A DNA stretch of 64,000 nucleotides from positions 1,860,001-1,924,000 of the forward strand of contig NW_024704761.1 in assembly GCF_018977255.1 (NCBI RefSeq). The letters are read 5' to 3'. How positions within the stretch are numbered: position 1 is the stretch's first letter; each line of letters starts with the position of its first letter. Source of the stretch: Callorhinchus milii (taxonomy: Eukaryota). The notes below the pieces were generated by a model. That model saw nothing but the letters and a program-made list of their open reading frames with translations, was not told where the DNA came from and did not search any database. Position numbers and translations under genes: made by a program. This document shows, piece after piece, positions 16,881-36,780 of the stretch.

Positions 16881-19800
16881 ATGACCAGTCTAATGGCCAG
16901 TTCCCTGCGGAGGCTCCGGGCTGTGTGGCCGGAGACAGGGACAGAGACAGGGACCCCAGGAGTCGGGCAGCAGGTACAGGAGCTGCATGTGCTCCAGCAG
17001 AAGAGGTGAGTGATCGGCCGGCTCTGAGCACTGCACTGCGGATAATAATAATAATATAATAATAATAATCCTTGCATTCGATATAGCGCTTTTCACATCG
17101 GGAGGACGTCCCAAAGCGCTTCACAGAACACACTGTAAAGTGAATTGACTGTATATTTGTGGGCGAACGCGGCGGCCAATTGCGCACAGCAATGTCCCAC
17201 AAACAGTCGTGGATTGAAAATGACCAATTTACTATTGTTTTTGGTTTTGGAGGGATTATTATTAGGCTCTGTGTGGAGTAAGGAAACTTGCCCAAGGTTT
17301 CGCCCTCTGCCTGGAATTGAACTCAGGTCTCTCACTTGCAAAGCGAGTGCTCTAACCACTGAGCTGCAGGACTCCAAGGAACAGGGGCAGGGAAGTAACA
17401 GCAGCAATAGCCCAGGAGAGACACACACAACACAGGTCCTCGTCAGATCGCTTTTCCGGGAGTAATAATCCCATCAAAAAAAAGTATTTAAAAAAAGATG
17501 ATGATTTGGTCACTTCAACCCCACGACTGTTAGTTTGTGGGACGTCGCTGTGCGCAATTGAATTGGCTGTCGCGTTTCGCTGCCCCCCCCCCCCACACAC
17601 ACACACACACAAAAATGTACAGTCAATTCACTTTACAGCGTACCCTGTGAATATCGTGTGTATCCCTCTCTAAAACCCTCGCTCTTTCGCTGTGCCTTTG
17701 ATCGTCTTGAAATTCCTCTGCTCGTTGCTCCCTCTCTGTCGTCTCGGGGAAACTCTCGAGGCCACTGATTGTACGTGGACAACAACCACAACAAAAGGCG
17801 TTTATGCCACGAAACTCATACGGCAGGGGTATGGGGGGGGATAAGGACAGGCTGACGCTCACTTCATCTCTGTAGCTCGAAGGTTGGCTATGGACTTAGC
17901 TTTAGTTCGATCCCAGCGATGCTGGTGTCTTCTCGGTCTCACTCTTGCTGTTGTTGCCCGCAGGATCAGCGAGTCCCCTCTCTTATACGCTGCCAAAGAA
18001 AACATGGTTCAGGATATCAAGAAGCTGATCCGATGCCCCTCGATCGACAACTTCCAAACAGGTGAACACGTTTTTCCTAAAGAAAAAGGGTCACTGCGGT
18101 TTGTTAAATCCGTTCTGTGATAGTCACAGGAGAGTGCCACATACCCATCCCTCCTCCCTCCGCACCACCATCAGTGACTGTGCCTTCAGCCACTTCGCCC
18201 CAAACCTCTGGAACTCTCTGCCTCGATCCCTCCGCCTCGCACCCCTCTTTATTCATCCCTCTTCGACCGCGCCTGTAGTCACCCCCCACCTCTCCACCCT
18301 CCCCGTTCTCCCTAACCTCAGCACTGTACGGTGCTCCTAAAACCTGGCTGAGGATCTGTTCACAGAGCTTGGCACAGGAGAGGACATGGGCTGCAGAGTT
18401 CTGAATGGTTTGCAGCTCGCGGAGGGAAGAGTTGGGAAGTCCTGCAGGGAGCAGGGAGGTAGCGTAGGATTATTATTGTTATTATTATTAGTGGACGCTC
18501 CCCCCACCACCCAGGGCTTTGGCCTGTCCACCTGCGTGAGGTCTTTCTCTGACGTTGCTCTCTCCGCAGGCACCATGGGGGAGACAGCACTGCACATCGC
18601 CAGCACGTACGGTAATTACCAGGCTGTAGTGACTCTTCTCGAAGCAGTTCCTGAACTCATCAATCTACCGATCACTGGCGAGCTTTACCAAGGTACACCC
18701 TGGCCTTTACCCTCGTCCTCCTTGTCAGTGATCTGCCAACAGGCTCCGATCAAAGCAATCAATAGAGGGACACACTTACTTGCAGCACTACAGTCCTCAA
18801 CCCACATTTAGTCTTCAGTCTTCCTCTATTCCAGAGGGACAGAGAGACATTACTCAAGAACAAAAAGACCGAGATTTTCCCTTAATCAATGTGTTTGCCA
18901 GGAGGTGGATGTAGGATATATTAAAGATACAACAAAGGCGTCTCAGACTGATTCCACTTTACTTAATGCAATTCGGCTCACTCACTCACTCTGTAATAAA
19001 CAGTGGTTTCATTGCTGCTACTTACCCACTCGCCCACCCCCCCCACACACCCCCCATCACCCCCACCACCCCCACCGGGCTCTGTAATTGTATATATAAA
19101 TATCGCAAGAGCAGCAGTACTGAAACACTGAAAGAGGCAATGATAGAACAACAGCCAAGATAAATAAATATATATAAATACACTCACTAAACTTTACAGT
19201 GTATCCTGTGAAGCGCTTTGAGGCGTCTCGGATGACGTGATGAGGCGCCGAGTCAAATGCCAGGATTATTATTATTATTATTATTGTACAATTGGTGTCG
19301 TGATTATGGCATTGAGGAGGGAGAGAGCCTGAGGCTCTGGGGTTGGACGGAGAACAGAAGTTGCCGTTTGGTTCAACAGGAGAAACATCGCTGCACATCG
19401 CGGTGGCGAACGGCAACGTGGGTCTGGTGAGAGAGCTGATCAGACGAGGAGCTGACGTGGTGACACCGCGAGCCACCGGAACCTTCTTCAGGCTGGGTGG
19501 CACCGGGATCCTTTACTACGGTAACAAGACGAGAGTTTGGGAAAATCAACACAATGATGCCAGTGTGGGGGGGGGAGGTGGGGGGTGGGGGGGGGATGGC
19601 GGGGTGTCAGCGCTCAGCTTCCCAGTTGGGGTGGAGGACGAGGGGTGGCAGCTGGTGGAATGTTATCTAAGCTCAAACAGTGGCTGGTTTGGTAAAGTCA
19701 CTGTTGATGTATTTAATGACATGGCTTTCAGTATCGATGCCCCCCCCTCCCCCTCCCCACCCACCCATCGGAACTCTCTCCTCGGTCTCACACCCCATCT

Positions 19801-34100: not shown

Positions 34101-36780
34101 TGCGCAAACCATTTTCATCATTAATTCAATAATAAAGACAACGTTTCCTCACAGTTTCTATTTTCCCGTTCCCGTTGAGCGCATTCACAAGGTCCCCAGC
34201 TCCAGATGTTTCTTTCCCGTCCCTGGTTCATTCTTCGTTGCTCACACCTCCTTTACCAACACACCACCCGGCCACCGACCTCGGTAACGCTACATACGGT
34301 ACCCAACAACACCCGTTCTTACCAAAGTGAAAGAGTTTCTTCGCATTCCTTCTGAAGAAGGTCCCAGTCGCTCGCGCAGTCACCACGTCTGCTCCTCGCC
34401 CGATCAGTTCTCTGACCAAACTCACGTTCTCATTTGCCACCGCGATGTGAAGTGCCGTTTCCCCTGATAAACAACCAAACGACAAGGTCACAGCCTGTGG
34501 ACAATAACAACAGTCCTTGCATTTGATGTGGCGCTTTATCACGCGGCAGTCAGTCCTATACCTTCATACATCTGGGAGGTGACCGGCACGTTGATGAGCT
34601 CTGGAGCGGCTTCGAGAAGTTCCGTTGCCACTTCACAATTGTTGTAGAGCACAGCGACGTGTAAGGCCGTCTCCCCCATCACTCCTACAGAGAGAGGAAC
34701 AGGCAACCTGTTACATTCCTTTCAACCGCTCGGTTACCGCTGACTTGCTGACGGAGTCCCTGTAGGGTAATGGTTAACGTGCTCGCCTCGCAAGGTTCAA
34801 TTTCCAGGCGGGGAGAAACCACAGGTAGTCACCAAATCTCAGGCTTTATAGACAAGAGGACTGACTATAAGAGCGAGTAGGTAATACTGGGTATTAGAGA
34901 TTAAATATTGAACTTGACTTCAATATTTGAAGTTGCAGTTGGAGTCTTGAGTTTGGTTTTGAGCCCATGACACATCGACACGAGAGTCCTGGAGAGGACC
35001 CAGCGGAGTTGACGAGGCTCATATCAGGGAAGATACTTTATCGCTATGGAAAGAGGCCTGAAAAGTTGGGAATGTTTGGATGTAGCTGAGAGGTTCAAAA
35101 GAAGTTTTCAAAAGTCACGAGTATCTTTAATAGGGAAAGAGATTAACCTCTGTGATCGATGAGGAGGGAGCAGGGAATGGGATTAGAGTAGACAGCTACA
35201 GTGGGGGAGCGAGCACCAGCACAGATGTGGTGGGTGGATCGAGCAGGTTTGACCAGTTCCAAGTTCCCTCATCTTCTCTTTCACCACTTTGTCTCTAATG
35301 TGATAACTTTCCCATGACATGACTTATCGCTCCTCATCGGGCTGAGCTGGGGTTTTTTTGCCTTGTTTTAACAATCCTGTACAAACAGTCCTACATTAGC
35401 AATTAGCTTCCTGGCTCTGACATTTGCAGTGAAACCCGTCAAGAGTAGGAATGACTCAGGGTCGTTATGTTGCAGGAATGACACGGTTTGGGGAGATGCT
35501 TCCCTGTTATTTCTGAGCTGCCGGTCAATCTTAAAACATTTATCAAGTTAGGTCCGCTAGGCTGACACTCCATTACAGTCACACTCACACACTCTGATTA
35601 CAAAGGTCAACAATATATTCCTTCATTGCATTTGATATAGTGCTTCTCATGTCTTCCGGACGTCTCAAAGCGCTTCACAGAATATACTGTAAAGTGAATT
35701 GACTGTTACGTTTTATGGGCGAAACGCGGCAGCCAATTGCATCTCTCACCTTTTTCAAAGAGATCAACTGTGGGACATTCAAGGAGCGTTTTAACAGCGT
35801 CCACATCATTCTCTCTGGCAGCCAAAAAGAGAGGCGTCTCACTGATCCTATGGGGAGAGGCCAGCGGTAAGAACAGCAAAGAGCAGCCATCAGCAGCCAG
35901 ACCATCAGTACAACAATTTACATCGATACCCTCCTGTGTTGCATTGTCAGAGGTGCTGTCCTTCAGTTGAAATCCTGGGCTGTCAAACCCCCAGAAAAAG
36001 ATGGAAGAACAAATCATCATCTGCTTCCCGTCGGCTTCTCATTATAGACTTTGCAGGTTTGGGATCGGGATGCCATCCGATATTCGGGAGTCCCGAGACA
36101 CAATTACCCCTTTAAATTAGACATTAAACCGAGGTCCCGTCTGCCCATTCAGGTGGACGGTAAAGATCCTGTGGCGCTATTCAAAGAGGGAAGAGAGTTT
36201 CTCCCTCCCAGAGTCATAGCCACTTTCTGAAGGAGATTGATGTTTTGTTCACCAGGTATTAGTTTGTCAAGTCTTAACAGCCCGTTTCACCAACGATTAT
36301 AGGAACTATGTTTGTTTTACATTGCCACATACATCCACATTCTCCCTCTTGTTGATCAATATATTTCCTGAATTTCTCCAGTTCCTTGTTTCACATCGTA
36401 ATCACTTGGGATGAGAGCCACATCGATAACACCACATATGCAATCGATTTGATTCTTTATGATACCTGGCCTGTTACAGCTGATTGTTGCTATAATTATG
36501 ATTATTATTGCAGTTCCCATATTATTATGTCGGAATATTGGGAAATAGCAGCGACTGCCAAACACCGAAGGGAAGATGTGATTCCGAGTCCAGGGAGCGC
36601 AGACCGGCAATCGCTGGGGAGATCAAGAGTAAAGCTGCTGTGAACTCACCTCTGGTTCTGCAGCAAGTGAAGCTTATCAATTCTATCCTGTAGCTCTTTC
36701 CCGGGCTGTAATCTGCAGCTCAGCTCCCTGGCAAACCTGGACAGGATCTCTCTCCCTCTCCCGGACAGGAATCCCGGCAT
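28139..36780 (-). CDS. TRPV5/6 (ECaC)-subfamily cation channel, divergent paralog B; 15 coding exons, 701 aa
   Basis: Exons (minus strand): 36780-36650, 35847-35750, 34684-34562, 34463-34323, 33645-33547, 33379-33213, 32575-32426, 31995-31783, 31317-31231, 30762-30686, 30174-30009, 29598-29532, 29229-28961, 28744-28638, 28349-28139, totalling 2106 nt with an open frame. Begins [16 protein letters not shown]...[20 protein letters not shown]; filter [14 protein letters not shown] region NRNRIYRAQ. Same intron positions and phases as paralog A. Confidence 0.95.

Follow-up and report, generated by a model that had tools for sequence, protein, structure and literature searches.

What becomes of an epithelial calcium channel when the residues on which its gating rests are replaced within an otherwise intact protein is the question raised by two genes of the elephant shark (Callorhinchus milii) that lie tail to tail in the stretch of DNA analyzed here (contig NW_024704761.1; "the window" is this whole stretch, 64,000 nucleotides long). 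Gene A (16881..26413, plus strand) encodes 643 amino acids (aa) and gene B (28139..36780, minus strand) 701 aa. A first-pass annotation, made from the sequence, had regarded them as a candidate new channel system with a jointly rebuilt pore, and possibly as TRPV7/TRPV8. The genes themselves are not new: the products of A and B are identical to XP_007886999.2 and XP_007886998.1, respectively (both "TRPV6-like" in RefSeq), which Morini et al. 2022 (PMC9664204, Table S1) named chTRPV5-2 and chTRPV5-3 and listed apart from TRPV7 and TRPV8, whose accessions differ. Published accounts cover the genes as well as their phylogeny and gill expression, and so far the two have been catalogued but assumed to be ordinary calcium channels. 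In particular, Flores-Aldama et al. (10.1101/564997, PMC7250927) located the expression of both elephant-fish copies, presumably A and B, mainly in the gills, and interpreted them as ordinary calcium-selective copies, i.e. as more channels of the same kind. The altered pore is not mentioned in the accessible parts of these papers, of PMC9664204 (where the word "pore" occurs 0 times) or of PMC10003196, nor was a mention of it found by searches of the open-access literature. We find that the remodelling of S5, the pore and S6 is clade-wide, that it arose in a burst on the common stem of A and B, and that it was conserved thereafter.

A remodelled pore shared by sharks, rays and chimaera

Both genes are complete, as had been claimed: each consists of 15 exons separated by 14 GT-AG introns, internal stops number 0 (splice sites were located and the coordinates translated), and the stop codons are 1,725 base pairs apart. 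The two proteins are 55% identical over 610 residues, contain ankyrin repeats according to Pfam, and have TRPV6/TRPV5 as their best solved relatives (E 2e-201). With mammalian TRPV5/TRPV6 they share about 50% identity, the fold, the ankyrin domain, S1-S4, R470, K484, I575, the TRP helix and, in the case of B, D542. The gap-free alignment of both to residues 542-596 of mammalian TRPV6, also noted at first pass, was recovered; a one-residue deletion in the turret of A (near 514/515) lies outside that range. That the genes are spliced follows from exon joins in intron-free contigs: in run X1, exon 8 of A is joined to exon 13 with 397 letters between them, which is the sum of exons 9-12, and exons 8, 11 and 13 of B are joined at the expected spacing, while contigs of run X2 join B exons 13 and 15 and those of run X5 join B exons 4 and 5. 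Runs X3 and X5 gave little unique cover, which counts neither for nor against splicing, the RNA label of the runs is a guess of the tool, and the contigs carry no tissue or level information.

Residues are numbered according to the short form of human TRPV6, set via a 725-aa primate TRPV6 (P0132) and checked against PDB chains. In A, exon 12 (25084..25150, plus strand) encodes an S5 with D489I (codon 25096) and R492P (25105), and exon 13 (25328..25593) the pore helix, the filter GLVNMP (D542N at 25429) and an S6 with N572F (25519), A576H (25531), D580E, T581L, H582I and W583R (25552). The corresponding exon 12 of B (29532..29598, minus strand) carries D489N (29586) and R492P (29577; T in 17/19 orthologues), and its exon 13 (28961..29229) combines the ancestral filter GLLDIP (D542 at 29125) with A566T (29053), L568Q, N572I (29035), A576N, G579A (29014), D580G, H582L and W583R (29002). 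Both proteins thus differ from mammalian TRPV5/TRPV6 in the replacement of D489, R492, N572, A576, D580, H582 and W583, to which D542N is added in A and A566T and G579A in B; moreover, the distal calmodulin-binding Trp helix (scored by a pattern match to its motif) is absent from both C. milii genes and from 19/19 B orthologues.

Conservation was counted over orthologues of A (n=15) and B (n=19) from sharks, rays and chimaera. Isoforms and partial models (including P0001, P0008 and P0023) were omitted, as were P0021, which is chimeric, and the Narcine model P0089, which lacks the pore; the canonical set comprises 24 sequences, with four divergent paralogues (one from reedfish, three from caecilians) left out. 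D489, R492, N572, A576, D580 and W583 are replaced in all A and B orthologues (D489 and R492 are lost in 34/34). The A orthologues invariably have I489, P492, N542, F572, H576, E580 and L581 (15/15), and R583 in 14/15 (Q in one); the B orthologues invariably have T566, Q568, I572, A579, L582 and R583 (19/19), together with K489 and F576 in 18/19 each (N at both positions in C. milii). The calmodulin cage formed by W583 is therefore gone, as had been proposed. The two genes do differ at the filter, the hexamers of which are invariant (N542 in all 15 A, D542 in all 19 B). The differences of the B filter from the human residues T539-G543 (of the type T539G/G543I), read initially as derived, turned out to be the ancestral fish state: GLLDIP is identical in coelacanth and in a canonical Narcine paralogue, which makes them tetrapod changes and not novelties of B. 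Likewise, of the derived states that had been assigned to both genes (FMLFFG, P492/Y493, R583 and the loss of N572, all present in both C. milii proteins), the losses of N572 and W583 hold for the whole clade, whereas E535M and R492P/F493Y are common to both genes only in C. milii (M535 in 19/19 B and 1/15 A, P492 in 15/15 A and 1/19 B, Y493 fixed in neither). The gate residue I575 is kept in 33/34 orthologues, R470 and K484 are invariant, R473 is found in 29/34 and K/R587 in 33/34, and R589 is lost in most.

Outside the clade four of these positions hardly vary. Among the other TRPV5/6 matches (n=94), D489 and A576 are found in 94, N572 in 93 and W583 in 91, and N572 is present in 69 of the 72 diverse representatives with an aligned S6 (149 examined). 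Of the 12 positions of the group 1 TRP fingerprint described in the accessible text of PMC9242649, each C. milii protein retains 9, with the losses clustered in S6 (the TRPV1 numbers were mapped onto TRPV6 by us). With exon 13 as the query, chondrichthyan proteins alone were returned (A, 10 of 72 candidates; B, 13 of 30), and the Pfam Ion_trans profile matches the canonical copies and gives no match in A, B or a reedfish paralogue. The two genes can be viewed as natural, long-conserved knock-outs of residues that are central to TRP gating models (the S6 Asn, D489 and W583); because they lack the residues on which these models rest, their expression would test the models directly.

Descent of the two genes and origin of the remodelling

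In a tree of 29 sequences, from which pore columns and exon 5 had been removed, A and B fall within the TRPV5/6 clade to the exclusion of TRPV7/8 (support 100/100), a placement with which a FastTree of 65 sequences agrees. Under the same exclusions the two are sisters (94.7/96), which bears out the earlier proposal that the remodelling is older than their duplication. The suggested identity with TRPV7/TRPV8 had to be dropped. Membership of the latter is defined by clade and by the SERPINI-GOLIM4 locus; a second tandem pair, on another contig (C11), has canonical D489, N572, A576 and D580 and appears from its tree position to be TRPV7/8, and A and B lie outside the clade of this pair, besides being listed as chTRPV5-2 and chTRPV5-3. 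The TRPV7/TRPV8 genes resemble A and B in subfamily, tandem arrangement, gill expression and Gly at 539, and differ from them in clade, locus and the four residues kept. Within the C11 pair, the filter of one gene (18380472-18380750, L011) reads GLTELQ, with Glu at 542, and residue 583 is Phe; in the other gene the filter GLIDLP goes together with W583. A partial third gene of TRPV7/8 type (C740:576-19342 of the same assembly, G000; L017-L018) has exons 5-11 only, on a contig of 41 kilobases (kb), and its later exons were not found up to 40 kb; the accessible part of PMC9664204 lists one TRPV7 and one TRPV8 for C. milii.

No TRPV5/6 genes other than A and B turned up in this genome. A query with Narcine P0137, a canonical paralogue from a ray (its assignment to chTRPV5-1 is our own), returned 40 matches, with 65 of 72 candidates scored, and no further TRPV5/6 gene was among them, in what is a single assembly and not proof of absence. 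In line with this, canonical chTRPV5-1 is reported lost in elephant shark and whale shark, and the chondrichthyan duplicates are reported to have been translocated away from the EPHB6-KEL region (PMC9664204, accessible text); the neighbours to the right of the pair, namely a TRIM gene, FBF1 and the end of a PI3-kinase gene, differ from that synteny and fit the translocation. Since a canonical TRPV5/6 is lacking in this assembly, A and B bear on gill Ca2+ handling in marine cartilaginous fishes. As the trees do not fix the place of chTRPV5-1, an origin of A and B before the split from bony fishes may hold. In catshark, according to the accessible part of PMC11979771, all three paralogues are expressed most highly in gills.

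Branch lengths for residues 484-596 were compared, as protein-level rates on a fixed tree, with those from non-pore columns resampled 200 times; pore columns were included in the alignment behind the topology, and cytosolic and membrane columns are pooled in the null. The A+B stem measures 0.40 in the pore region against a mean of 0.09 elsewhere, a value reached by 0/200 resamples, and after the duplication both the A stem (0.35; 0/200) and the B stem (0.32; 5/200) were again long. Within the clades, conservation is highest in the pore in the case of A (0/200 as low) and average there in the case of B (67/200 lower). Columns that are conserved within a clade but different from the canonical state are concentrated in the pore, both in A (14/49 versus 16/221 outside, p=1.2e-4) and in B (13/49 versus 25/221, p=0.011), and 57 of 113 pore columns are invariant in A and 53 of 113 in B. 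The dN/dS between A and B is 0.32 overall and 0.44 in S5-S6.

Exon 5 departs from this picture. Over the exon (A, 21228..21326, plus strand; B, 33547..33645, minus strand) 96 of 99 bases are the same, that is 97% identity compared with 56-73% in the other exons, and dS is 0.09 versus about 1.2 elsewhere, with flanking introns that differ; recent, exon-limited gene conversion between the inverted paralogues is the likely cause. P0021 (UniRef V9KEJ8) consists of A residues 1-162 (with two differences) followed by B from exon 5 on, and is likely a transcript-assembly chimera via the near-identical exon; an inversion allele between the two copies would yield the same product, and a normal join of B exons 4 and 5 exists.

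Proposed gating without the canonical residues

The consequences of the replacements can be read, with due reserve, from mammalian channels, on which the accessible text of the papers cited here reports the following. The W583 cage traps K115 of calmodulin (PMC10578198), and its loss raises activity (PMC5379628, PMC10578198), with more influx and with mutants that kill cells by Ca2+ overload (PMC5379628). D489 and D580 form a Mg2+ site, and neutralization of D580 relieves Mg2+ block; the pairs D489-T581 and Q473-R589 sustain the open state, with I575 as the gate, and L574 and M578 the closed state, while D489A/N/E give no current (PMC12592368). With G579A the open probability drops to 3%, compared with 21% before, and the effect of calmodulin-site mutants is offset (PMC5379628). 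The S6 Asn (N572) is conserved and faces the pore only in the open state (PMC6219692), and in TRPV1 N676A is non-functional and N676F/M677A/L678P is unresponsive to capsaicin (PMC3707783, PMC9242649).

Transferred to A and B, these data would imply that the arginine at 583 abolishes pore plugging by calmodulin, and that both the Mg2+ site (D489/D580) and the auto-inhibitory pair R492-D580 are lost. The network thought to hold open a pi-bulged S6 would be lost as well (D489-T581, Q473-R589 and N572, with A566 and G579 in addition in B). The face formed by 574, 578 and 582 in the closed state consists entirely of hydrophobic residues in A and B and has a far higher hydropathy (3.5-4.0 versus 0.5-1.5); residue 582 we take to be part of that face. 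Together with Phe or Ile at 572, which suits a buried closed-state position, this predicts a low basal opening. As both brakes and props are gone, the channels would rest mostly shut and be opened by another cue. An anionic lipid or other anion would be the likely one, given that basic residues are new at 473, 489 (in B), 583 and 587 and adjoin R470 and K484, which were kept. Each clade also gained one polar residue in S6, H576 in A and Q568 in B, that lies one turn from 572 and may stand in for the lost Asn. A566T, fixed in B, reportedly lowers the activity of human TRPV6, although our literature search found no paper on it. It is thus likely, judging from the residues, that A and B open and shut by a mechanism different from that of other TRP channels. 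More specifically, we tentatively favor, at somewhat below an even chance, that they are gill cation channels without calmodulin plug and Mg2+ lock that are mostly shut at rest, of which B likely still prefers Ca2+ and A likely does not.

Several points weigh against this interpretation. In the mammalian channels R492Q results in 50-fold larger Ca2+ currents (PMC8376870) and W583 loss in more influx, and D542N is ambiguous, as TRPV5 with this change conducts without Mg2+ inhibition (PMC2266600) and human TRPV6 shows no detectable current (PMC13216613; all in accessible text). The effect of a co-evolved set of about 20 changes may not be predictable from mutations made singly in a mammalian channel, and no recorded current for A or B was found in the literature. 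As the distal Trp helix is kept in 11/15 A orthologues, some other mode of calmodulin action on A may persist. C. milii keeps Q473 in both genes, which weakens the idea of a basic pocket. An AlphaFold model of A retains S5, pore helix and S6 (TM-score 0.80-0.83, about 0.82, to TRPV5/6 structures), but its pore is of low confidence (block pLDDT 43-59) and the model is monomeric, and therefore uninformative on open versus closed. Finally, the invariance of the filter would be expected just as much of a heteromeric subunit.

The latter alternative, which we consider less probable, holds that A and B are modulatory or obligate heteromeric subunits that conduct only together or with TRPV7/8 or chTRPV5-1, such that the rings of Asp542 and Trp583 are diluted, pore-facing His and Arg are added and Ca2+ entry is lowered. 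It draws on the position of the genes side by side in sharks, rays and chimaera (partly established from adjacent accessions), on their splicing in the same run and on the second pore-focused burst on each stem, although tandem duplicates often stay linked anyway. Several of the A/B substitutions are reported to silence mammalian homomers (PMC12592368, PMC13216613), and TRPC1, a member of another subfamily and an analogy only, has an altered filter, forms no homomer and lowers Ca2+ permeability via pore-facing Lys and His (PMC12789093). As far as the accessible texts go, however, chTRPV5-1 cannot be the required partner here or in whale shark, having been found absent and reported lost, respectively, and the catshark paralogues trpv5/6.1-3 differ in their secondary tissues (olfactory and seminal vesicle versus kidney signals; PMC11979771). 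In the electric ray Narcine bancroftii, moreover, B is whole, and the pore exon is missing from the one A model found, which may be an annotation fault.

Less probable still is the proposal of the first-pass annotation, that is constitutively open, non-inactivating channels of the epithelial calcium channel type with a Ca2+-selective B and a non-selective A. W583, R492 and D580 are each a restraint in the mammalian channel and are lost; C. milii A has no calmodulin tail and the Trp motif is found in no B; and in 15/15 A the open-state pair D489-T581 is replaced by a hydrophobic I-L pair that could preserve the open contact. The loss of the W583 cage thus stands on the side of "probably non-inactivating", but residues that keep TRPV6 in the open state were lost too (D489, N572, T581 in A, G579 in B, R589 in most orthologues): D489N silences human TRPV6 (PMC12592368), G579A is fixed in B, N572 has become F or I, and extra arginines at the inner mouth would repel cations. 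Given the cytotoxicity of W583 mutants (PMC5379628), an always-open version facing seawater would seem costly.

The gill is also an organ of acid-base and nitrogen exchange. We regard it as quite improbable, nevertheless, that A and B have ceased to be Ca2+/Na+ channels and act as a sealed scaffold or sensor, or as a pore for another solute (H+, NH4+ or anions), H576 of A then serving to sense pH; the conservation of this His in 15/15 A, the ring of R583, the loss of the only polar residue of the S6 cavity and the lost Ion_trans match in A, B and the reedfish paralogue are set against the exact ancestral Ca2+ filter in 19/19 B and the retention of I575. That the genes are recent pseudogenes or relaxed copies, as the truncated C-terminus and long branch of C. 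milii A might suggest, is refuted, in agreement with the first-pass annotation, by the intact orthologues with their conserved pore columns, the dN/dS of 0.32 and the spliced contigs.

Part of the remodelling has evolved elsewhere. A polypterid TRPV5 paralogue (Erpetoichthys XP_028665790, Polypterus XP_039619681) shares D542N and N572F with A and has likewise lost W583 (W583T in reedfish and its bichir orthologue) and the calmodulin Trp helix; it differs in keeping D489, R492 and D580 and in having a smaller residue at 575 or in the 574-575 region (I575A in reedfish). Its position in the tree beside the second reedfish copy, within the ray-finned fishes (98.8/99), makes its changes independent of those in A and B. 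D542N occurs alone in three caecilian paralogues and in teleost-clade and amphibian-clade representatives; the duplicate TRPV5/6 copies with this Asn are P0077 and P0168 (polypterids), P0059, P0075 and P0076 (caecilian, with an Asp two residues earlier, DINAP), and further P0182, P0191, P0184, P0187 and P0193. Such repetition in duplicate copies (chondrichthyan A, polypterid, caecilian, teleost-clade and amphibian-clade) suggests a recurring second function for the channel family. A broader proposal, which we consider doubtful, is that A and B form a TRP channel, probably as an A+B heteromer, that gates without the S6 Asn and the alpha-to-pi switch thought to be general to TRP channels, responds to another cue (an anionic lipid, or pH via H576) and has taken over from the canonical epithelial calcium channel in both elephant shark and whale shark, bichirs having arrived independently at the same solution of Asn filter, Phe-572 and no Trp.

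Gene structures and surroundings

The exons of A are 16881-17005, 17964-18061, 18570-18692, 19380-19520, 21228-21326, 21908-22083, 22418-22567 and 22952-23164 (exons 1-8) and 23454-23540, 23942-24018, 24537-24702, 25084-25150, 25328-25593, 25982-26088 and 26377-26413 (exons 9-15), all on the plus strand; a stretch of N (20904-21068) within intron 4 affects no exon. Those of B, on the minus strand, are 36780-36650, 35847-35750, 34684-34562, 34463-34323, 33645-33547, 33379-33213, 32575-32426 and 31995-31783 (exons 1-8) and 31317-31231, 30762-30686, 30174-30009, 29598-29532, 29229-28961, 28744-28638 and 28349-28139 (exons 9-15). The interval between the stop codons (26414..28138) contains both 3' ends, with AATAAA at 26563 (plus strand) and 27530 (minus strand), and a contig spans 27522-28198.

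The last coding exon of A (26377..26413) holds 12 codons and the stop and lacks the distal Trp helix, so that C. milii A ends ~65 residues before its shark orthologues, both in the window and in two RefSeq versions. Other frames downstream of the stop (26377-26600) faintly resemble the shark tail, which suggests a lineage-specific loss by frameshift. The Narcine bancroftii model of A (P0089) ends after exon 12, by annotation fault or by real loss. Further to the right, on the minus strand (38313-62821), are the TRIM gene (RING, a B-box with a Gly-Leu-Glu-Pro repeat and PRY-SPRY), FBF1 and the last exon of the PI3-kinase gene, together with a further gene that has no Pfam match and is presumably MRPL38.

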